This document shows, in pieces, positions 555 to 54,062 of a DNA stretch of 64,000 nucleotides. The translations under genes were made by a program, and so were the position numbers. The stretch's first letter is position 1. Each line of letters begins with the position of its first letter. The DNA is from an uncultured virus (IMG/VR IMGVR_UViG_3300003962_000117) (lineage: Duplodnaviria; Heunggongvirae; Uroviricota; Caudoviricetes): the IMG/VR virus record IMGVR_UViG_3300003962_000117; one strand, 5' to 3'. The notes beneath the pieces are model-generated. The model saw only the letters and a list, made by a program, of their open reading frames with translations, was not told the origin of the DNA and did not search any database.

Positions 555-2642
555 ATGAAAAATTACTTCTCAACTCTGCTCTTGGCGCTGTCGCTCACAT
601 CAATCATGGCGCAGTCACCGGAAATTGATTCACTCCAAACGCTGCTATCAAAAGAGCAGACCGATACCGGACGAATCAATATCATCAATCTCATCAGTCG
701 CGAATACATCAATGCCGGAGATAATAAATCAGCTCTGCGTCTTGCAAAGGATGCTCAAGAGCGTTCTGTTGTCGTTGGCTATAAAAGCGGAATAGCGGCC
801 TCATATAACAATATGGGAATCGTTTATACCATACAAACAGACTACGCGAAGGCGCTGGAGAATTATTTCTTAGCACTAAAATTTGGTGAAGAAGCTGGAG
901 ATAAAATCGCCCTGTCTAAGACCTATAATAATATGGGGATTGTCTATGACAGACAAAGTGATTACGCCAAAGCCGTAAACAGCTACTCCTCCTCTTTGAA
1001 GTTATCGGAAGAAATGAAAGACTGGAAAGGGGTCGCCTCTCTTTATCAGAACATCGGGAATATCTATTCAGACAGCAAGGAATATGAAACCGCGCTTTCA
1101 TATTTCAACAAATCGCTGGCCATCCGGAAAACACTGGACGACATAAGGGGCGAAGGAGGGACATACAACAGCATGACAACCGCTTATATTGGGCTTGGTC
1201 AATACGACAAGGCGTTAGAGGTTGGAGAAAAAGCTCTTGCGATAAATAAGCAATTTGGAGATAAGTATAGAACCGCATCAACACTATCAAATATCAGTGA
1301 AATATATTTTAAAACAAAAAATTACGACAAAGCGCTGGAGCGCTCGCAGGAAGCCCTCTCGTTGGCGGTAGGAATGGATGACAAGAACAGGCAAGGGAAT
1401 TACCACAACGGACTGGCGGATATATACATGGGTATGGGGGATTTCAATCGGTCGTACAAGCACTTAGACACTGCACTTAGTCTCGCCAAAAGCATTGACG
1501 ACAAATCTATACTCAAAGATTCGTATAAGATATTGTCCGACCTGTACATGAGAATGAATGATTGCAAAAAAGCATACGACTGCCACTTACTATATATCGC
1601 ATACAAGGATTCCATTAACACCACCGAAGGCGCTCTTGCAATGGAGCGTATGCAATCTAAGTACGAATCAGAAAAGAAAGAGAAGATTCGCGAGCTGGAG
1701 CAAGCCGCTAAGGATGAGAAGCAAAAAGCGAAGCTGGACAAAGAGCGTATGATGCGCTATGCTTTCATGGGGGGATTCGCTCTGATGATTGCACTATCAT
1801 TTTTCATCTACAAGGGATACAAGCAGAAAACAAAATCAAATAAAATAATTTCTGAACAGAAAAAACTTGTGGAAGAAAAGAACCATGAGATTACCGATAG
1901 CATCAGATACGCTTCCCGTGTTCAACAGGCGATACTTCCTCCGGACGACTTTATTAAAGGAGTAATGCCAGAGCACTTCATATATTTTTCTCCGAAAGAT
2001 ATTGTGTCTGGTGATTTCTACTTCGTAGATAAGCAGGGAGACAAATTATTTTGGGCGAGCTGCGATTGTACCGGACATGGCGTTTCTGGGTCTATGATGA
2101 GTATGCTTGGAGTGAATGCTATTTCGGGAATTATCAAAGACGGAGAAACAGTTCCGTCAAAAATTCTGGACAAGCTCAATGAGCGAATCAATCAATCCTT
2201 GCACAAGACCAGCGATGAATCTATCCGAGACGGTATGGATGTTTCATTCTGCCAGCTCGACACTTCATCGAATAAACTTTCTTGGGCTGGAGCAAACAAT
2301 CCTCTCTGGATAGTACGCGGGTCTGAAATCATTGAGTATAAAGCGGACAAGATGCCCATCGGTCAAATGTATAAGAGCGAGAACTACAAGAACCATGAAA
2401 TCGAAGTTCAGGCCGGAGACATCATCTATTCTTTCAGCGATGGCTACTGCGACCAATTCAATAAGGACGGAAAGAAGTTCATGAAGAAAAGATTCCGCGA
2501 ATTGCTGCTCTCTATCCGAGATAAATCAATGAGCGAGCAGAGAGATATAATCGAAAGTACAATGGATGAATGGAGGTCTGACGAAATAACAGAACTGACA
2601 GAGCAGACCGATGACCTCTTGGTGTTCGGGGTAAAAGTGTAA
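555..2642 (+). CDS. Membrane-anchored TPR + SpoIIE/RsbU (PP2C) phosphatase
   Basis: Signal peptide, multiple TPRs (YNNMGIVY), TM helix, IVSGDFY/DCTGHGV/DGMD/SDGYCDQF/QTDD PP2C motifs. Confidence 0.9.
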   Translation: MKNYFSTLLLALSLTSIMAQSPEIDSLQTLLSKEQTDTGRINIINLISREYINAGDNKSALRLAKDAQERSVVVGYKSGIAASYNNMGIVYTIQTDYAKALENYFLALKFGEEAGDKIALSKTYNNMGIVYDRQSDYAKAVNSYSSSLKLSEEMKDWKGVASLYQNIGNIYSDSKEYETALSYFNKSLAIRKTLDDIRGEGGTYNSMTTAYIGLGQYDKALEVGEKALAINKQFGDKYRTASTLSNISEIYFKTKNYDKALERSQEALSLAVGMDDKNRQGNYHNGLADIYMGMGDFNRSYKHLDTALSLAKSIDDKSILKDSYKILSDLYMRMNDCKKAYDCHLLYIAYKDSINTTEGALAMERMQSKYESEKKEKIRELEQAAKDEKQKAKLDKERMMRYAFMGGFALMIALSFFIYKGYKQKTKSNKIISEQKKLVEEKNHEITDSIRYASRVQQAILPPDDFIKGVMPEHFIYFSPKDIVSGDFYFVDKQGDKLFWASCDCTGHGVSGSMMSMLGVNAISGIIKDGETVPSKILDKLNERINQSLHKTSDESIRDGMDVSFCQLDTSSNKLSWAGANNPLWIVRGSEIIEYKADKMPIGQMYKSENYKNHEIEVQAGDIIYSFSDGYCDQFNKDGKKFMKKRFRELLLSIRDKSMSEQRDIIESTMDEWRSDEITELTEQTDDLLVFGVKV

Positions 2643-2686
2643 TACTGTATCTACGAATCGTAATGTGAGAAATGACCAATATTAAC

Positions 2687-2826
2687 GTAACTCATTGATA
2701 ATCAATATAGTTAAAATGTTGATAACTTTCAGTGCCAGTATTGAGATAATTCGTAGTTTTGTATTGTAATCGAAAGGAGAATCCGGCTGCCTAAAGTGCC
2801 GGAGCAAAAATAGAAAACCTAAAATG
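2687..2826 (+). promoter_or_regulatory. Bacteroidota-type promoter plus hairpin leader (copy 1)
   Basis: TAGTTTTG (TAnnTTTG) at 2754-2761, palindrome ATTGATAATCAAT 2694-2706, TCCGGC/GCCGGA hairpin; near-copy at 12130-12285. Confidence 0.75.
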
Positions 2827-3213
2827 AGAGACTCTAAAAAATCTTCCCCCGCAAAAAAATCAGGACGCGAACTGGCTGAGACCGCAAAAGCGATGCTCAA
2901 GCAAGGTAGCAAAAAAGTTCTGGTAAAAACCGTTGACTGCACCCCTGATTGGGTCGGGCTCGTTCCATTATTCATTGATTGGATTCAAAACGGCAATCAG
3001 CAGCAGTACGAAGAAGCGCAGAGGAGCATCATGCAGATGGCAAGAGTATCGGATGATTATAGAAAAAATCAATCGCTCTTTAAGGCAAGCCCAGATATGC
3101 TTGCGGCCTTGAAGGATGCACTGGAAATACTGGAAGCGTCTCCGGTTAAATTCAATGGAACTATCCTACAAGTAAAACAAGCTATCGCCAAAGCAGAAGG
3201 TAAGCAGTCGTAA
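2824..3213 (+). CDS. hypothetical phage protein
   Basis: ORF after promoter; C-terminal ASPDMLAALK...AIAKAEG motif common in small phage proteins. Confidence 0.7.
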   Translation: MRDSKKSSPAKKSGRELAETAKAMLKQGSKKVLVKTVDCTPDWVGLVPLFIDWIQNGNQQQYEEAQRSIMQMARVSDDYRKNQSLFKASPDMLAALKDALEILEASPVKFNGTILQVKQAIAKAEGKQS

Positions 3214-3243
3214 AAAAATAGAAACCCTAAAAACACAATTATC

Positions 3244-3558
3244 ATGGAAGAAGAATTAATCGTAAAGCTGGCACTCGGTCAAAAAGTTACCGACAAACAA
3301 ATCGTTTGCGCGGAACTGAGCAACAATGAAATTCCCTTTAAGCTCGGAAAAGGCGAAAAAATTTCTGACAGCGACATCGCAAATGAGCTCTATGAGATTT
3401 GCGACAGAGAGCACGCAGGCTGCAATAACGCCTGCCCTGTATTCCGCCTCAATGGAAGCGAAGTGGTTAAACCAAAAAAGGGATACCCTTATGGATGCGC
3501 TTGCTTCAAGAGTGGAAGTGAAATGCTGAAATTCATTCGCAAAAAATTCAAAGAATAA
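3244..3558 (+). CDS. hypothetical Cys-rich protein
   Basis: ORF preceded by AGAAACCCTAAAA leader. Confidence 0.7.
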   Translation: MEEELIVKLALGQKVTDKQIVCAELSNNEIPFKLGKGEKISDSDIANELYEICDREHAGCNNACPVFRLNGSEVVKPKKGYPYGCACFKSGSEMLKFIRKKFKE

Positions 3559-3585
3559 AAAACACAAGCTAATAAAAAAGTTAAC

Positions 3586-3876
3586 ATGAGAAACATGAAC
3601 ATTTTCGGAGGTCAAGGATACCTCACCGATGAACAAAGAAAAAAACCTCTGGCGCATGGATGCGACTACTTTAGCTTCGAGTCCTGCATAGACCTCTCCA
3701 AGCCAGTCAGGGTAATTCCTTTCGGAAACGCGACAGAGTTCTCTGTTGACCAGTACAGTCGCGATGTAGCGAGCTTTTTCTGCTGGTGGACAAATAATAT
3801 CCACAAAGACCTCAATGGATATTCTGGATTCCACAATGTACAATTTGAGCTCGTTGGATTCATCATTAAGTCGTAA
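3586..3876 (+). CDS. hypothetical protein
   Basis: co-oriented ORF with A-rich leader. Confidence 0.65.
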   Translation: MRNMNIFGGQGYLTDEQRKKPLAHGCDYFSFESCIDLSKPVRVIPFGNATEFSVDQYSRDVASFFCWWTNNIHKDLNGYSGFHNVQFELVGFIIKS

Positions 3877-3914
3877 TTAAAATAAAAACAGAAACCCTAA
3901 AACCAATCGTAACT

Positions 3915-4088
3915 ATGGTAAACTATCACAACAAATACGCAGGAGAGCGCCTTCCCTATGTAGCACCTGAGTTCCGCACAGTAGAAGAACTCATGCTGAT
4001 GCAATCAAAAGGCAAATCACTCACACGCGATGAAAAGAATCGCGTGGCCGCATACGCAGAGCAAAAGCGAAAACAAAAAAATGTATAA
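3915..4088 (+). CDS. 57-aa hypothetical protein (not in ORF track)
   Basis: MVNYHNKYAGERLPY...QKNV*, preceded by AGAAACCCTAAAA leader. Confidence 0.65.
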   Translation: MVNYHNKYAGERLPYVAPEFRTVEELMLMQSKGKSLTRDEKNRVAAYAEQKRKQKNV

Positions 4089-4122
4089 TTAAAAAAAACA
4101 GAAACCCTAAAACCAAGCTATC

Positions 4123-4461
4123 ATGTCAAGAAAAAAGAACTTAGCAAACAAGCTCGATGCCAATATGGTATTCGGAAAATTCCACAAGGAACGTAACCGC
4201 GAAAGCAAAATTGATTTCATCGGGAAAGTTCCAGCGCTGGTCAAAGAGATTTCCAGCGATTTCAAGGCAGTGGGCGATGTAAGAGTAGAAAAGGTGTTTG
4301 ACTCGGATTTATATCGAGTGGACATAAAGCCCAGACCCGCAATGATGGATATTGACCTGCTCTACATCACCATGAAAAAACATAGCATCGAAGGATTCTT
4401 CGTTGACTCCGGAAACCCAAGCATCTTTATTCACATCACCTACAATCAGCAAAATGGATAA
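4123..4461 (+). CDS. hypothetical protein
   Basis: ORF preceded by AGAAACCCTAAAA leader. Confidence 0.7.
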   Translation: MSRKKNLANKLDANMVFGKFHKERNRESKIDFIGKVPALVKEISSDFKAVGDVRVEKVFDSDLYRVDIKPRPAMMDIDLLYITMKKHSIEGFFVDSGNPSIFIHITYNQQNG

Positions 4462-5153: not shown

Positions 5154-5368
5154 AAGTCTTAACCCTACATCAATGCAGCTTATGTCACGGAAGCGGACTC
5201 GTTGACCCGTCCGATATGAATAAGATTTTAATGTCCGAGTCTATTCCTGAAATATCAAAAGAAATTTTCAAATGCCCAAGATGTCAGGGAAGAAAGAATG
5301 TCGAAGTCTGGATGGATGCAAAAGACTTCATCAGAATGTACATGGACGAAAAAATTAAACCTGAATAA
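5150..5368 (+). CDS. small zinc-finger protein (CxxCxGxG type)
   Basis: CSLCHGSG...CPRCQG. Confidence 0.65.
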   Translation: MKVLTLHQCSLCHGSGLVDPSDMNKILMSESIPEISKEIFKCPRCQGRKNVEVWMDAKDFIRMYMDEKIKPE

Positions 5369-48392: not shown

Positions 48393-48582
48393 CAAATCTG
48401 ATTTTCCTGATTTCAGATTTCATCAAGACGACCATCGAATCAGAGTCGGCATCAACACTCCTTTTTTCCGAGAACTCGTAACAATCCTCGAACTCTTCAA
48501 CCTTTGAAGTTGGCTTGAACTCATCCGATTCTCCATCCTCATAGAGAACGCTAATGGAGGAGCATTTGTCTGGTAGTTTCAT
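48382..48582 (-). CDS. hypothetical acidic protein
   Basis: last ORF of - strand operon. Confidence 0.55.
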   Translation of the reverse strand: MKLPDKCSSISVLYEDGESDEFKPTSKVEEFEDCYEFSEKRSVDADSDSMVVLMKSEIRKIRFVKG

Positions 48583-48589
48583 ATTGGTG

Positions 48590-48718
48590 TTATTTGTGAT
48601 TTTCGATGTACTCTATCGCATCCTCAACGGTAACGATTTTTTCCATGTCATCATCCGGTATGGTTATCTTGAATGCTTTTTCAAGCTCAAGAATTAACTC
48701 CACCATGTCCAGAGAAGA
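48590..48718 (-). pseudogene. acpP: C-terminal half of acyl carrier protein
   Basis: [43 protein letters not shown]-terminal helix absent, replaced by tRNA-Cys. Confidence 0.75.
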
Positions 48719-48724
48719 CCCTTG

Positions 48725-48795
48725 AGGTCGTAATCTGATTTGAACAGATGTACGCAGTTTTGCAGACTGCTGGATAACCGCTCTCCCATACGACC
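48725..48795 (-). tRNA. tRNA-Cys(GCA)
   Basis: GGTCGTA/TACGACC stem, GCAGT CTGCAAA ACTGC, TTCAAAT T-loop, U73. Confidence 0.9.
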
Positions 48796-48878
48796 AATTA
48801 AACCCTGTCATCGCAATAGTCATCAAACCGAACTCAGTCGCAAGGGTTTTCAGCCCCATATTGCGAGACAAAGTTTTG

Positions 48879-48952
48879 AGCGAAAGACGGGGGTCGAACC
48901 CGCGAACCTCCACATTGGCAACGTGGCGCTCTACCGACTGAGCTACTTTCGC
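48879..48952 (-). tRNA. tRNA-Gly(GCC)
   Basis: GCGAAAG/CTTTCGC, CCACG TTGCCAA TGTGG. Confidence 0.92.
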
Positions 48953-48962
48953 ATGATAATAA

Positions 48963-49679
48963 TTATTCACGTTTATCTCTTTTTATATGCCTGTTTACCA
49001 TAGCGCATAGTGGTCGAAAATTCGTATAATGATTTAATCTTATTAATTCCTCTTTCGTCTTTGCGCTTTTTAATGGAACTATATGGTCTAAATCCCATCC
49101 ATAATTAAATTTTCCGTTATATTTGCCTTTATTTTTCCAAGTCATCCATTTTTCAAACTTGGACTCAATGTGTGTTTTAAATTCCAGAAATGTGCATCCT
49201 AATATGCTTTGAGTTACCTCCTTCTTAATATACCCATTCTTCTTGATAGACTCTCTTATCAATCTGCTAATAGTGCATTGCAGGGAAAACAATGAATTGT
49301 TCGCTCTTTTGTTTCTCATGTACATCCTTTTTCTTTCCCTGAATTTTATTTTATGTTCAACATAGTAGTCGTGAGCATATTGGGATAGGGCTTTCTTGTT
49401 TTTATCTCTATACACCTTAGTTGATGACAGGAAGCATTCTTTGCATACTTTTTTGTGTTTATAAAATTTAGAAATATCCTTAATCTCCAAGCATTTGCTG
49501 CATTTTTTTTGACTTATATTTCTGCCGAATGGAAGTATGATATTATTCTTTTTTGCAAATTTTTTAACTAACTTAAAGTTTCTCCCATAATATTTTAACC
49601 CTAAATTCTCCAATACGCCTCTCATATTTATGGAAGATTTAACTGCATTTGTTAGCTCTGTTTTCGTAATTTTTTTCAT
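48963..49679 (-). CDS. HNH-family endonuclease inside the tRNA array
   Basis: CSKC/CKEC zinc knuckle; ILGCT...MTWKN...WDLDHIVPL...[10 protein letters not shown]. Confidence 0.8.
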
Positions 49680-49880
49680 GGAAATTAGTATAACCCCGAT
49701 TCTGTTTTATTTTGTCATTTATCTAAGCCACAACCCGACTTCATAGGAAAACCGACATCCTCTGTCTGTTTGTGTTGCTACTTCCATAGTGATAGCGAAT
49801 GTTTTTCATTCTTCTATGTTAGGTTTGGTAGTCGGGAGTTTCCTCTGATAATTAACCAGCGACAAACCCTATTACTTCCA
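49677..49880 (-). ncRNA. rnpB: minimal RNase P RNA
   Basis: GAGGAAACTCCCGA pairs with AACAGAATCGGGGTTA (P4 with bulged U); P2 TTTGTC/GACAAA, P3 CTGGT/ATCAG, GGCTTAGATAAATGA, AGTAGCAACACAAA. Confidence 0.85.
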
Positions 49881-49888
49881 CAAATATA
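49881..49888 (-). promoter_or_regulatory. Bacteroidota -7 promoter for rnpB/HNH
   Basis: TATATTTG on - strand immediately 5' of the RNA. Confidence 0.6.
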
Positions 49889-49941
49889 CTATTTTTCAAG
49901 ATTCTGTTTTATAACACGCATATAATATTTCAAAAAACGAG

Positions 49942-50015
49942 AGCGGATGGCGAGGCTCGAACTCGCGACCTGAACATTGGAAGTGTTCCATTCTACCAAA
50001 CTGAACTACATCCGC
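49942..50015 (-). tRNA. tRNA-Gly(TCC)
   Basis: GCGGATG/CATCCGC, GAACA CTTCCAA TGTTC. Confidence 0.92.
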
Positions 50016-50025
50016 ATTTATTTAG

Positions 50026-50097
50026 TACCCCGTAGGGTAATCGAAACCCTATCTTTTGGTTGAAAACCAAACGTGCTGACCTTTACACCAACGGGGC
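50026..50097 (-). tRNA. tRNA-Glu(TTC)
   Basis: GCCCCGT/ACGGGGT, TTTGG TTTTCAA CCAAA. Confidence 0.88.
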
Positions 50098-50146
50098 GTA
50101 GTCTCCTCCGCCTCGTCAGTTTCTTCAACTATGTTAATCACGTTTG

Positions 50147-50275
50147 TCATTTTGCTTCTTGTTTCAAAATTCTCCTTGTTGATTTATTTGCCAGTCGTTT
50201 TCCATCTTTACGCAAGTGCTTGTGCCAGCCTGTTTCGCTTCTTGATTTTCCGCTTACCGGATATTGCTTTTTCAT
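50147..50275 (-). CDS. 42-aa basic peptide
   Basis: MKKQYPVSGKSRSETGWHKHLRKDGKRLANKSTRRILKQEAK*. Confidence 0.55.
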   Translation of the reverse strand: MKKQYPVSGKSRSETGWHKHLRKDGKRLANKSTRRILKQEAK

Positions 50276-50286
50276 TCTATTCTTAT

Positions 50287-50436
50287 TTATGAATCCGGTG
50301 TTTCAAAACAATGTCCGCATTCAGTGCATTTTTTCCCGTATGGATTATCTGGGTCTATATCGAGAGCGTCTGGTGTATGTCCGCAATTAGGACAATCATA
50401 ACCTTGCTCGTCATAATATATAACTCCATTTTTCAT
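50287..50436 (-). CDS. 49-aa zinc-ribbon protein
   Basis: MKNG...CPNCG...CTECG; ATG just 3' of tRNA-Asp. Confidence 0.6.
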   Translation of the reverse strand: MKNGVIYYDEQGYDCPNCGHTPDALDIDPDNPYGKKCTECGHCFETPDS

Positions 50437-50438
50437 TG

Positions 50439-50514
50439 CGGATGTGAAGGGGCTCGAACCCTCGACCTCTCCCGTGACAGGGGAGCACTCTAACCAAAAC
50501 TGAGCTACACATCC
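50439..50514 (-). tRNA. tRNA-Asp(GTC)
   Basis: GGATGTG/CACATCC, CTCCC CTGTCAC GGGAG, G73. Confidence 0.92.
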
Positions 50515-50526
50515 ATATTTTTTTTC

Positions 50527-50603
50527 TGGCTCTCGCGGCAAGACTTGAACTTGCGACCCTCTGATTAACAGTCAGATGCTCTAACCAACTGAGCTACGCG
50601 AGA
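50527..50603 (-). tRNA. tRNA-Asn(GTT)
   Basis: TCTCGCG/CGCGAGA, TCTGA CTGTTAA TCAGA, encoded CCA. Confidence 0.93.
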
Positions 50604-50617
50604 ATTTATATTTCATG

Positions 50618-50691
50618 TACGCAAGGCTGGATTTGAACCAGCGACCCCAACATTATCAGTGTTGTACTCTAACCAACTGAGCTACTCGCGT
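50618..50691 (-). tRNA. tRNA-Ile(GAT)
   Basis: ACGCGAG/CTTGCGT, CAACA CTGATAA TGTTG. Confidence 0.92.
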
Positions 50692-50844
50692 ATAATATGC
50701 TGCCATCGAGACAAACAAGATTTGTTGCAACAAAATCCTGCCTGACATTCTTTATATAGCGGTGGCGGACGCTACTTAATCTCATGCGGTTTGCAACATA
50801 CGATTTGCGCCTACACGATTTCAGTTTCTCAAAGAACAACTTCG

Positions 50845-50946
50845 TAGCGGGTGTGAGAGTCGAACTCACTATCTCTGAGGGTATGAGCCTCGAATGATTC
50901 ATGCAATTCATTTCTGGCATTGCAATCTCCGTTTCACTCCCCCGCA
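50845..50946 (-). tRNA. tRNA-Met(CAT), initiator-like, with enlarged D-loop
   Basis: GAGG CTCATAC CCTC anticodon arm, GTGAG TTCGACT CTCAC T-arm, 1:72 mismatch, 36-nt D-loop. Confidence 0.65.
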
Positions 50947-50962
50947 ATATATTTTTCTTCCG

Positions 50963-51035
50963 TAGCGATAGGCAGACTCGAACTGCCGACCTTGAGTTTA
51001 TGAATCTCACGCTCTACCACCTGAGCTATATCGCT
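50963..51035 (-). tRNA. tRNA-Met(CAT) (elongator Met or Ile2)
   Basis: AGCGATA/TATCGCT, loop TTCATAA. Confidence 0.88.
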
Positions 51036-51047
51036 GTCATTTTTTAG

Positions 51048-51120
51048 AGCCAGTTGAGGGACTCGAACCCCCGACCAACTGATTACAAATCAGCCGTTCT
51101 ACCAACTGAACTAAACTGGC
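51048..51120 (-). tRNA. tRNA-Thr(TGT)
   Basis: GCCAGTT/AACTGGC, GCTGA TTTGTAA TCAGT. Confidence 0.93.
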
Positions 51121-51121
51121 A

Positions 51122-51193
51122 TGGTAGCGATAAGAGGACTTTCACCCCTTGTTAGGCTCGCGAGAACCTAACCCCCGTGATGAGAATATCGCT
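51122..51193 (-). ncRNA. tRNA-like RNA with ACCA end, no anticodon loop
   Basis: AGCGATA/TATCGCT-ACCA, T-like arm AGGGG TGAAAGT CCTCT, 8-bp hairpin with 4-nt loop. Confidence 0.6.
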
Positions 51194-51279
51194 GGACGAA
51201 TCCGTTTTAGCCGTAACCTATTGTACAATTCAGTTACGATTTATCATCTTCATCTTTCTGCATTATGGTTTAGCAGAAG

Positions 51280-51354
51280 TGGCAACAGTTGGACTCGAAC
51301 CAACAACGGGCAGATTTTCAGTCTGCTGCTCTACCAAATTGGAGCTATGTTGCC
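51280..51354 (-). tRNA. tRNA-Phe(GAA)
   Basis: GGCAACA/TGTTGCC, GCAGA CTGAAAA TCTGC. Confidence 0.93.
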
Positions 51355-51446
51355 ATTCAAGCAGGGCGATTCCGATAGAACGGAAAGATTACAGGGCGCT
51401 GATTCTTTTTTTTGCTCTTTCACCCAGACCTGCTTCGTGGAATTGT

Positions 51447-51592
51447 TGGCGCAGGCGGTAGTTTATCCCCGCGTCCTCCTCCTTCTCAGGCAGAGGTGAA
51501 CAACTTTGGTCTTAATGGGTCACGTTAACCCACTCCGATGGATAATGATTCAGCGCTGAATCATCGCTCCCCATTCTGTTCTACTGCACGCA
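51447..51592 (-). ncRNA. unassigned multibranch structured RNA
   Basis: closing stem GCGTGCAGTAG/CTACCGCCTGCGC, three inner hairpins. Confidence 0.45.
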
Positions 51593-51600
51593 TCTTAAAT

Positions 51601-51676
51601 ATCGCTGTCGGGCAGGGCTCGAACCTGCGACCTCCTCCCTCGCGGGAGTGCTCTACCAACTGAGCTACCGACCGAT
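51601..51676 (-). ncRNA. tRNA-like RNA with GCGA tetraloop replacing the anticodon loop
   Basis: canonical D arm TAGCTCAGTTGGTAGAGC and T arm GCAGG TTCGAGC CCTGC; CTCCC GCGA GGGAG. Confidence 0.75.
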
Positions 51677-51773
51677 GTCTCAGGAGACCCGACCAGCAGA
51701 ATTTCGTTTACGAGACGAAACCCCGCAGTTCGTTAGATTGTACCTAATCCCCATCCACACCTTCTTCAATATC

Positions 51774-51878
51774 TTCGGCAAGAGAACTGTTCCGCACCAT
51801 CGTAGTCCCGTTGGAACTGTACGTTGTTACGATGGGTGTCCATCTGGTGTGATACTCCCTTTCAGGAGTCCTGCCGAA
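51774..51878 (-). ncRNA. unassigned structured RNA
   Basis: TTCGGCAG/TTGCCGAA, ACTCCT GAAA GGGAGT, CACCCATCGTA/TACGATGGTG. Confidence 0.5.
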
Positions 51879-51923
51879 TAATTTCCAATAATAATTTTCA
51901 AAGAACATTTACTATCACTATCG

Positions 51924-51996
51924 CGCAAGTGACAGGGCTCGAACCTATGGCCTACGGTTTTGGAGACCGTTGCTCTACCAACTGAGCTACACTTGC
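51924..51996 (-). tRNA. tRNA-Trp(CCA)
   Basis: GCAAGTG/CACTTGC, ACGGT CTCCAAA ACCGT, G73. Confidence 0.93.
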
Positions 51997-52010
51997 GTTT
52001 GACCGGACTT

Positions 52011-52047
52011 AAAACAAAAAGCCCCGAACATTTCTGTCGGGGCTTTC
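52011..52047 (-). terminator. intrinsic terminator (attenuator) directly upstream of the tRNA array
   Basis: GAAAGCCCCGAC-AGAAATGT-TCGGGGCTTT followed by TTGTTTT. Confidence 0.8.
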
Positions 52048-52066
52048 CGCTTTAGGTCTTGTATCT

Positions 52067-52213
52067 TTATCCTTCATCAGAATACAAAACTTTGTAGAAA
52101 GCCCCGACCGCATCCTCGTCCCCCGCCTTATTAAAGCGAATGACTGACACGGCACAGGTTTTACCCGCTATCGTAGGCCACATTGTTGTTGTATTTTTTT
52201 GAAGTGAAAGCAT
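52067..52213 (-). CDS. 48-aa putative leader peptide overlapping antiterminator
   Basis: MLSLQKNTTTMWPTIAGKTCAVSVIRFNKAGDEDAVGAFYKVLYSDEG*; A-rich Bacteroidota-style leader before ATG. Confidence 0.65.
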   Translation of the reverse strand: MLSLQKNTTTMWPTIAGKTCAVSVIRFNKAGDEDAVGAFYKVLYSDEG

Positions 52214-52259
52214 TTTCTGTTTTTGTTGTTGACTACTTCGTGTTGTTGCTATTATGACG

Positions 52260-52267
52260 CAAAGTTA
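52260..52267 (-). promoter_or_regulatory. Bacteroidota -7 promoter of the tRNA operon
   Basis: TAACTTTG(C) on - strand, about 47 nt before leader ATG. Confidence 0.7.
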
Positions 52268-52409
52268 TACTAAAAGTTGCTTACATCGCGCAACTATTTT
52301 TCAATAACGGTGTAAGTTATTGATTTTCAATAAATAAAAAGGTAATTATATACTATTTTACACCGTATTGATATTTTGCTTATATTTGTAGTATCTAAAC
52401 CTACTAATC

Positions 52410-53364
52410 ATGGCAAAGAAAGCAATCAAACAAATCTGCTCCCTCTACGACTTACTAAAGAAATTTCCCACTGAAAAGGACTGCATCGAATACTTCGAGC
52501 AAATAATCTGGCAGGGGAAACCAATATCTCCATTCGATGAGACCTCGAAGGTCTATAAATGCTCTGGCAACAAATATAAATGCAAAAAGACTGGAAAATA
52601 CTTCAACATTAAGAACGGAACTATTTTCGAGAACAGCAACATTAAACTACAAAAGTGGCTTATGGCTATTTACCTGATGACTTCACACAAGAAAGGTATC
52701 AGTTCTATCCAGCTATCGAAAGACATAGGCGTTACTCAAAAGAGCGCATGGTTTATACTCCACAGACTTCGTTATGCAATGGCTCACAGAGACTTTAAGA
52801 AGCCACTGGGGAACACCGTTGAGTGCGATGAGGCATATATCGGTGGAAAGGAAAAGAACAAGCACGCAAGCAAGAAAAGAGGTCAAGGACAGGGTTCATT
52901 GGACAGAGAGGCATTGGATAAGGCAACCGTATTCGGAGCAGTTGAGCGGGGGTGGAAAGGTTGTAGTGGAGAAAATAGCCAATGCTAACAAGGAAAATAT
53001 AGAGCCGATTATATTCAAGAACGTAAAAGAAGGTTCAAGAATATTTACTGACGAATGGTATGGCTATCATGCGCTCGGAAAAACTTACGAGCATAAATCA
53101 ATTAAGCATAATGTAAAGCAGTATGTAGATGGTGAAGTCCATACGAATACCATCGAAAATTTCTGAGCGTGTTTAAAGCGCGGGCTATACGGCATATACC
53201 ATAAGACCGACAAAGCACATCTACAATGGTATCTGGATGAGTTCGCCTTTCGATATAATACCAGAGATATGGCGGAACTTCCAAGATGCGAAATGTTTTT
53301 AGAGAGAACTCAAGGAAGATTGAAATACGCAGATTTAATAAAATCCAATTCTAAGAAAAAATAA
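52410..53364 (+). pseudogene. IS1595 (ISXO2-like) DDE transposase, frameshift plus in-frame TGA
   Basis: KKGISS.QL, VECDEAYIGG, TDEW..Y, HTNTIENF*, YLDEF.FRYN; extra G at 52948-52952, TGA at 53164. Confidence 0.85.
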
Positions 53365-53398
53365 AACTATATGCTTATTAATACAAATTTTTATAGTT

Positions 53399-53617
53399 CT
53401 AATCTCCATAATAATCCGTTGTTGCAGGTAAAGATTTGCCTGCAACAAACATTGTTACAAGCCCTCCAATGGAAATAGCTACTCCAGACCAAAGAATAAT
53501 TCCATTTATTTTCTTGTCATTAACAGGTGTTTTAATGGAAAACCTTATAGTACCAAGACCTATAACGCTTGATACCGCTCCGCCAGCAAATACCAGTATG
53601 GCTTTTTCTTTTGTCAT
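53399..53617 (-). CDS. small two-TM passenger protein
   Basis: two hydrophobic helices; TACTTTTG promoter-like element upstream. Confidence 0.5.
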   Translation of the reverse strand: MTKEKAILVFAGGAVSSVIGLGTIRFSIKTPVNDKKINGIILWSGVAISIGGLVTMFVAGKSLPATTDYYGD

Positions 53618-53804
53618 AATGTTTTAGATTAATTTATTTGAAATAAGTATATAATTACAAAAGTAATAAATTAAAATAATTTAATACGATTCAACTTCTA
53701 CCATATTCCGACGGTAGTTATTGTCGCCTATACTATGATAGACCGACACTAACTACCAATAAGCATGATAATAGGCATTCGATAATTTTGCTTATTTTTG
53801 CTAA

Positions 53805-53933
53805 ATGCCTAAAAGACCATCAAAAAAAATAAACTCTAAGAGCATTAAAAAGCGTGGAGGAGTCATGTCAGAACAAGAGTTTAATGAAGTTATCCAAAGA
53901 ATTGTTCGAGTTAAACCAAAGCGCAGTAAATAA
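53805..53933 (+). CDS. 42-aa basic passenger peptide near right IS end
   Basis: MPKRPSKK...MSEQEFNEVIQRIVRVKPKRSK*. Confidence 0.45.
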   Translation: MPKRPSKKINSKSIKKRGGVMSEQEFNEVIQRIVRVKPKRSK

Positions 53934-54062
53934 TCCCGCATTACCCGCTATTGATTTTTTTTACTATTTTCACAGGTGTAAAATAGTATATAATTACCAA
54001 TAAAAGTGATAATAAAAATAGAAATTGTAGCGATAAATTAGTATATTACCGCCAAGATGGAA

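Follow-up and report, generated by a model that had tools for sequence, protein, structure and literature searches.

Here we describe the leader at the 5΄ edge of a phage tRNA array, on the minus strand of a 64,000-nucleotide stretch of an uncultured virus (IMG/VR record IMGVR_UViG_3300003962_000117), a phage-like contig of 64 kb that we call the window. The array comprises 12 tRNA genes, running from 51996 to 48724. Our analysis points, with a probability of roughly 0.6, to a ribosome-mediated transcription attenuator of the leader-peptide type that gates these tRNA genes. As far as its anatomy, the conservation of its small open reading frame (ORF) and its alternative pairings go, the leader bears out the initial annotation, which had read it as a translation-sensing attenuator. 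Folding models suggest a fuller anatomy than was described there, with a 1:2 helix and a second 10-bp helix in the 2:3 pairing, that is, a trp-like 1:2 / 2:3 / 3:4 layout (Table 1).

The promoter box that had been placed upstream of the ORF, TAACTTTG, is present on the minus strand at 52267-52260. It matches TAnnTTTG, the sigma-A -7 box of Flavobacteria, which lies at positions -12 to -5 (PMC9723704). Because of its position at -12 to -5, transcription is predicted to start at about 52255, some 5 nt past the box. A 42-nt, A-rich and unstructured 5΄ untranslated region (UTR) leads to the ORF, which opens with ATG at 52213, closes with TAA at 52069-52067 and, as had been read from the sequence before, has 48 codons and uses 19 of the 20 amino acids (His is missing) in its peptide, MLSLQKNTTTMWPTIAGKTCAVSVIRFNKAGDEDAVGAFYKVLYSDEG. 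Beyond the stop codon lies the intrinsic terminator, AAAGCCCCGA, a 9-nt loop and TCGGGGCTTT followed by TTGTTTT, which makes a 10-bp GC-rich stem plus TTTTTGTTTT and ends at 52011; tRNA-Trp starts at 51996, leaving a gap of 14 nt where the initial annotation gave about 15. Inside the ORF, GTCGGGGCTTTC (52108-52097) is indeed a perfect 12-nt complement of 52047-52036, the 5΄ half of the terminator, and this perfect inverted repeat was also recovered independently by a repeat search.

Dinucleotide shuffling of the 195 nt upstream of the terminator never produced a complement of at least 12 nt to its 5΄ half (0/5000); the maximum was 11 nt, reached in 2/5000 shuffles, and at least 9 nt was reached in 59/5000. 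As a natural control, the 64-kb window was scanned for terminator-like hairpins. Only one canonical intrinsic terminator, that of the leader, was found in the 64 kb under strict rules (a perfect stem of at least 7 bp and at least 6 T in 9). Relaxed rules gave 12 terminator-like hairpins, and the other 11 have upstream complements of only 4-8 nt.

The minimum free energy (MFE) fold of the leader RNA (52255-52005) has -77.9 kcal/mol and z = -5.6, and none of 200 shuffles folds equally well. In this fold the ORF closes on itself: segment 1, which includes AAT ACA ACA ACA ATG TGG, pairs with segment 2 around two hairpins, and the terminator forms with an A/U extension. Besides the 12-mer, segment 2 carries GTTTTGTATT (52090-52081), and segment 3 carries the post-stop stretch GATACAAGAC (52065-52056) and the terminator 5΄ arm GAAAGCCCCGAC (52047-52036). 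The alternative is a 2:3 hairpin (52110-52034) of 13 + 10 bp, in which the 12-mer is lengthened to 13 pairs by a G-U, GTTTTGTATT pairs with GATACAAGAC in the second helix, and the stop codon sits in the loop. Calculated energies are -17.7 kcal/mol for the 1:2 duplex, -44.2 for the ORF-closed form (1:2 plus inner hairpins), -32.8 for the 2:3 antiterminator and -31.9 for the 3:4 terminator with its A/U extension (52060-52005). Folding both conformers confirms that antiterminator and terminator use the same terminator 5΄ arm and are mutually exclusive, as had been proposed, at nearly equal energies.

Segment 2 switches to segment 3 as long as the 3΄ arm is missing from the nascent transcript. Stepwise, the MFE structure is 1:2 up to 52048 and 2:3 with the 3΄ end at 52036-52020; once 52011 is reached, it is 1:2 together with the terminator. 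To pass from 1:2 to 2:3, the nascent RNA has to cross a direct-path barrier (findpath) of about 19 kcal/mol, so RNA folding without a ribosome should remain in 1:2 and terminate. With a ribosome footprint masked at codon 9, 12 or 20, the nascent MFE structure is 2:3. The features predicted for an attenuator are found in this leader: an intrinsic terminator, an antiterminator that excludes it and, by prediction, a 1:2 helix inside the ORF.

We propose that transcription begins some 5 nt after the TAnnTTTG box and yields a leader RNA with four segments. During synthesis segment 1 (codons 4-14) would pair with segment 2 (codons 36-47), freeing segment 3 for segment 4, and the resulting strong intrinsic terminator, 14 nt ahead of tRNA-Trp, would leave a terminated leader of about 245 nt. 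Smooth passage of a ribosome to the stop codon would also favour termination, because the stop codon lies in the 2:3 loop and a ribosome there would block this pairing. A ribosome stalled within the first 30 codons or so would cover segment 1 and free segment 2; among these codons are AAT ACA ACA ACA ATG TGG, which are cognate to the Asn, Thr, Met and Trp tRNAs encoded in the array itself. The freed segment 2 would then pair with segment 3, no terminator would form, and the polymerase would enter the tRNA genes. The net outcome would be a feedback in which slow decoding gives more phage tRNA and fast decoding gives less.

Relatives of the leader were recovered from other metagenomes. IMG/VR holds one related contig (L001/L004), reached through the peptide, two DNA patterns and a peptide alignment. 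Full DNA was compared between the window and L001, and three to four further contigs were compared by difference tables over 51850-52420; the X contigs are Logan contigs of four metagenome runs. Pair comparisons were taken from separate folds, because the MAFFT alignment misplaces the terminator 5΄ arm. Besides the window's own, the frame is open at 45-48 codons in 9 variants, one of which, P0004, is called longer (85 residues) with an upstream extension. Indels between the close variants span whole codons. P0005, P0009 and P0012 are more distant, with 65-42% identity and 46-48 residues; like P0004 they come from Logan or ENA contigs and were compared as protein only, and they keep the 15 columns that are invariant among 8 sequences of 42-87% identity.

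In L001 the leader stands ahead of the same array, and the adjacent protein gene has just 35-66% amino acid identity. Nucleotide identity between the window and L001 is 46/72 in the flank from the end of the insertion sequence (IS) to the -7 box (1 gap column), 36/46 in the 5΄ UTR (22 gap columns), 78/78 in codons 1-28 (two 3-nt gaps), 51/60 from codon 29 to the stop (one 3-nt gap), 23/27 from there to the 5΄ arm (6 gap columns) and 25/25 over the loop, 3΄ arm and U tract (2 gap columns). Thus the three indels within the ORF are each of 3 nt, whereas those outside it are not whole-codon, and segment 1 is nucleotide-identical save one codon indel. In the ORF of X1 and X2, a 2-nt and a 1-nt deletion fall inside one stretch of 8 nt and together restore the frame; among the indels listed, those past the stop codon are of 1 nt each. 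For X3, 6 substitutions fall in the 42-nt 5΄ UTR and none is listed over 52140-52213, a pattern that, together with the 78/78 identity of codons 1-28, fits selection on RNA pairing and codon identity. To judge from these comparisons the leader ORF is real, conserved and frame-protected, with translation predicted, and an open, protected frame with frozen synonymous sites suggests selection on translation plus RNA or codon sequence.

The alternative pairings recur as well. L001 passes through the same order of folds, with -28.6 kcal/mol for 2:3 and -21.7 kcal/mol for the terminator. Where the window pairs 52107 U with 52037 A, L001 has G and C, a change that is compensatory for 2:3 and costs one terminator pair, and the three substitutions in the inner strand of L001 segment 3 (GAUACAAGAC to AAUACGAAAC) keep the pairing with U by GU/AU exchange. 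Likewise, AAG-to-GAA in an internal hairpin of L001, X1 and X2 turns one G-U into A-U and one A-U into G-U, and both pairs are kept. One X1 and one X2 contig extend unbroken from the ORF through the terminator to tRNA-Trp; their terminator (52011-52048) has no listed difference from the window, and their segment 2, by hand conversion of the table, reads ...ACA CGC GGG GCT TTC CAC, in agreement with peptide P0001. Read by hand, its ...CGGGGCTTTCC makes 11 contiguous pairs with the unchanged terminator arm GGAAAGCCCCG. The layout of ORF, antiterminator and terminator that the initial annotation proposed to look for in related phages recurs in L001, with one compensatory pair, and stands contiguous with tRNA-Trp in X1 and X2. 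The promoter box keeps TAnnTTTG with changed nn, as TACATTTG in L001 and TATCTTTG in an X2 contig (52265 T>A on the plus strand). X4, represented by a 112-nt piece of the ORF and an ambiguous contig over 52010-52049, was left out of the pairing arguments. A separate observation concerns peptide residues 9 and 42: T9 (ACA) accompanies V42 (GTT) in the window clade, and N9 accompanies D42 or G42 in three distant homologues. Since codons 9 and 42 face each other in helix 1:2, this may be covariation at the RNA level.

Which shortage would such a leader sense? The claim that codons for every array tRNA type precede the switch holds: codons 1-35 contain a cognate codon for 12/12 array tRNA species. 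In a background of 6671 windows of 48 codons, drawn from 28 phage ORFs chosen as likely genes from the 119 ORFs of at least 100 residues, all 12 species are covered in 2.0% of windows by 48 codons and in 0.16% by the first 35. Codons 7-12 (AAT ACA ACA ACA ATG TGG) are all read by array tRNAs. A tentative reading, which we hold to be rather doubtful, is that the leader works as a pan-tRNA 'decoding gauge': whenever any tRNA with a replacement in the array runs short, the ribosome would stall in the first 30 codons or so, switching on the whole set together with the RNase P-like RNA of the array; the new tRNAs would shut the switch, and the leader would be one of a widespread, so far undescribed class heading phage tRNA arrays. 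Host anticodon nucleases, tRNA loss induced by the phage or codon mismatch could each, under it, cause the shortage; both pan-tRNA and anticodon-nuclease sensing are inferences.

Several points weigh against an attenuator or against its breadth. Coupling of transcription and translation in the host is assumed. The cognate fraction of the ORF (24/48 against 0.448 in the background) is not enriched overall, and cognate runs of at least 6 occur in 23% of gene windows; for these two reasons the breadth of the sensor is suggestive and not established. Two full DNA sequences and the three to four contig tables yield only one fully compensatory pair, and 52076 T>C (minus strand), present in all relatives, breaks a 1:2 pair uncompensated. 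At the protein level, the distant homologues do not retain GAF, whose codons hold segment 2. L001 has an ORF of about 300 codons between terminator and tRNA-Trp, and its terminator is weaker; in its full-length MFE fold 2:3 holds until well beyond the U tract. Finally, the peptide is conserved well beyond a few regulatory codons, unlike in classical leaders, which would fit a functional micro-protein.

This last point is the main argument for a function of the peptide itself, possibly alongside attenuation, and it leads to the rival that we consider improbable but likelier than the others, namely that the ORF is an ordinary small phage gene followed by a terminator of its own. It would encode a micro-protein of 45-48 residues, the tRNAs would be expected to be transcribed by a constitutive leak past that terminator, and the complementarity would be a by-product, for instance of an old duplication of the terminator 3΄ arm. 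The full-length conservation, with 15 invariant columns in homologues down to 42% identity, and the protected frame are what such a gene would have, and segments 2 and 4 are direct repeats that share TCGGGGCTTT, as a duplication would leave them. However, neither the second 10-bp helix, in which all substitutions are GU/AU exchanges, nor the compensatory pair nor the 1:2 helix is explained by a relic of this kind; selection on protein alone does not predict that codons 1-28 are identical in L001, synonymous sites included, despite diverged flanks; and the 14 nt from terminator to tRNA-Trp are too short for a separate promoter. The peptide has no family in Pfam or PHROGs, its best Atlas score is 0.82, with recognition below threshold, and AlphaFold2 gives it a mean predicted local distance difference test of 52 and a predicted template modelling score of 0.19 from an 8-sequence alignment, which is weak evidence because the alignment is shallow. 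As weak evidence, these negatives also leave room for a novel micro-protein.

A structured leader that acts independently of a stalled ribosome is, in our estimate, unlikely. It could be a factor-binding RNA switch, a temperature- or processing-controlled leader of a tRNA precursor, or a trans-acting small RNA of about 245 nt like rnTrpL of Sinorhizobium. Liberated attenuator RNAs and leader peptides with functions in trans do exist (PMC6614838, PMC7968998), and both the strongly non-random fold and the extreme conservation at the nucleotide level would suit this explanation. The whole-codon indels, and a conserved frame that stays open in 9 variants, speak for a role of translation, and the stop codon in the 2:3 loop with segment 1 inside the ORF is the geometry that ribosome-mediated attenuation requires. 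Over 48400-52450, Rfam at E <= 1 matches no known element in the leader, T-box included, apart from chance-level rows (CrcZ 16 bits, Rev39 15 bits). That an unrelated ORF-like frame and an ordinary terminator merely happen to share a complementary 12-mer is very improbable. GC-rich terminator arms do find partial complements, as the 59 shuffles with at least 9 nt show, but no shuffle reached 12, the 11 control hairpins stay at 4-8 nt, and pairing and ORF recur together in diverged relatives.

A ribosome-mediated attenuator is the reading that we prefer, and it has well-known counterparts. In enterobacteria, leader-peptide attenuators of amino-acid operons comprise trpL, hisL, thrL, leuL, pheL and the multivalent ilvGMEDA leader. 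The window element resembles them in its short leader ORF (here with predicted translation), in the 1:2, 2:3 antiterminator and 3:4 intrinsic terminator pairings, in the candidate regulatory codons within segment 1 and in a terminator directly ahead of the regulated genes. It differs in being phage-borne and in what would be regulated, tRNAs and the RNase P-like RNA instead of biosynthetic enzymes. Its leader is also long, with 48 codons, two extra hairpins and a stall window of about 27 codons that would free segment 2; in place of a long run of a single codon it offers only ACA x3, with AAT, ATG and TGG beside it; and its peptide is conserved over its full length. T-boxes, the tRNA-sensing terminator/antiterminator leaders of Gram-positive aminoacyl-tRNA synthetase and amino-acid genes, likewise report the state of the tRNA pool through a choice between terminator and antiterminator. 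In contrast to the window leader, with its conserved ORF and no Rfam T-box match, a T-box binds uncharged tRNA directly and needs no ORF.

Of the enterobacterial systems, the pheL attenuator is described in PMC3082878. Closer to the presumed type of host, PMC9723704 reports 'strong clues' for leader-peptide attenuation, and TAnnTTTG promoters, in Flavobacterium psychrophilum. Those candidates share with the window leader the TAnnTTTG -7 box and a context devoid of Shine-Dalgarno sequences (PMC9723704). With such clues reported in a Bacteroidota host, the mechanism is plausible in such hosts. In contrast to the window element, the F. psychrophilum candidates precede bacterial amino-acid biosynthesis operons, with none reported ahead of tRNA genes or in phages (PMC9723704). 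A further parallel, in a different gene context, is offered by the dual-function attenuator products rnTrpL and peTrpL of Sinorhizobium meliloti (PMC6614838, PMC7968998): the terminated RNA predicted for the window leader and its conserved peptide could likewise have functions of their own, which might account for the strong conservation of the peptide here. Among 8.1 million papers in PubMed Central and 0.36 million preprints, judged from abstracts, we found no published leader-peptide attenuation of phage tRNA genes.

Table 1. Features of the leader and its surroundings, in window coordinates.
Feature	Coordinates	Strand	Basis
Bacteroidota-type sigma-A -7 box, TAACTTTG	52260..52267	-	sequence; consensus TAnnTTTG
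Leader ORF, 48 codons + TAA	52067..52213	-	sequence; homologous ORFs of 45-48 codons
Segment 1, anti-antiterminator strand, codons 4-14	52172..52204	-	MFE fold; pairs with 52106-52072
Two internal hairpins (52168-52154 and 52146-52114) between segments 1 and 2	52114..52168	-	window and L001 folds
Segment 2, codons 36-47	52072..52108	-	pairs with segment 1 or segment 3
Segment 3	52036..52065	-	pairs with segment 2 (antiterminator) or segment 4 (terminator)
Segment 4, terminator 3΄ arm TCGGGGCTTT and U tract TTGTTTT	52011..52030	-	terminator fold
Putatively gated genes	48724..51996	-	tRNA calls, Rfam and protein-family matches
RNase P RNA-like element, 200 nt, within the array	49680-49879	-	Rfam RF00373
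IS1595-family element	52341..53998	+	24-nt perfect terminal inverted repeats, frameshifted transposase

The plus strand of the window, up to about 48.4 kb, encodes RecT, DnaB, a polymerase exonuclease subunit and SSB, among others, and the minus strand, from 64 kb downward, encodes glycosyltransferases, methyltransferases, a radical-SAM protein and APS kinase among its products. No close GenBank phage was found via DnaB, every match being below 60%, and blastn of 51000-53500 against GenBank phages gave matches to tRNAs only. The array runs tRNA-Trp, Leu(GAG), Phe, Thr(UGU), Met, Ile(GAU), Asn, Asp, Glu and Gly(UCC), followed by the RNase P-like RNA, an endonuclease ORF, Gly(GCC) and Cys. On the minus strand of 48400-52500 TAnnTTTG occurs only twice, in the leader's box and at 49888, immediately upstream of the RNase P-like element; with no other such box in between, Trp to Gly(UCC) is consistent with one unit behind the leader.

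The initial annotation spoke of an RNase P operon, but what the array contains is an RNase P-like RNA whose Rfam match stays below threshold: against RF00373, 49879-49680 scores 47.2 bits where the gathering score is 84, at E = 2e-12. The match spans the whole model (1-288), with 89 model positions replaced by 9, and the element retains GAGGAAAcUCC, GCUUAG and ACAGAA. It is absent in the relative L004.

Between tRNA-Trp and the tRNA that follows it, a further conserved structured RNA, about 105 nt long, occupies about 51773-51878 (minus strand) in the window and about 5256-5362 (plus strand) in L004, with 80.6% identity over 155 nt. Four of its 31 consensus pairs are kept via two-sided changes, three of them consecutive; the ORFs that overlap it translate to unrelated peptides in window and L004, and it has no Rfam match. 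An endonuclease VII-like ORF (PHROG 1035) occupies 48963-49679 (minus strand) between Gly(UCC) and Gly(GCC) in the window, and a Cys-rich ORF of about 300 residues lies at about 3247-4120 (plus strand) in L001, between the leader terminator and tRNA-Trp; the endonuclease-like ORFs, at differing sites in the two arrays, are probably homing endonucleases. The tRNA-Leu(GAG) gene of the window (51604-51674, minus strand) scores only 39.3 bits, and no equivalent is called in L001, where tRNA-Trp (4129-4214, plus strand) is called at 86 nt and has a weak Rfam match to tRNA-Sec. Upstream of the leader, 73 nt from its -7 box, an IS1595-family element is inserted with an 8-bp target duplication (AATAAAAA / AATAAAAG) and a transposase split into two ORFs. 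L004 has the same element at the same site (2022-3852; target duplication TTTTTACT), its interior inverted relative to the flanks.

The search for relatives covered several collections. A set of 5.8 billion proteins gave 3 small homologues of the leader peptide, and a profile search of 1.84 billion gave 5 small-ORF homologues among 10 hits, including P0001, which the larger set had also given. P0006-8, P0010 and P0011 were dropped as non-relatives, being long proteins matched in many short stretches, with P0010 and P0011 repeats. Two weak GTDB matches were also rejected: L005 is out of frame in a longer open frame, and neither it nor L006 is accompanied by tRNAs. In IMG/VR the exact pattern of antiterminator and terminator had 0 matches and the neighbouring protein of 207 residues had 0 relatives; in JGI metagenome contigs neither the peptide alignment nor a 24-nt pattern recovered any relative, and tblastn of P0009 against GenBank phages gave nothing at E <= 1. 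None of the runs listed as containing the stretch is an RNA run, and two metatranscriptome runs of the X1 study contained next to none of the leader's words.

What would such a leader mean for the phage? Why phages carry tRNA genes is debated, codon compensation and escape from tRNA-targeting defences being among the explanations put forward (eLife 2023, PMC10264068; Nat Commun 2024, PMC11555353), and the control of phage tRNA expression has hardly been addressed so far. If our reading is true, the phage would gauge decoding speed directly and tune its tRNA supply by feedback, and a mechanism of amino-acid operons would be extended to the translation machinery itself. As a compact natural sensor for translation elongation, the leader could then also serve Bacteroidota-type expression systems, and it offers a testable link from tRNA depletion to the counter-measures of the phage.

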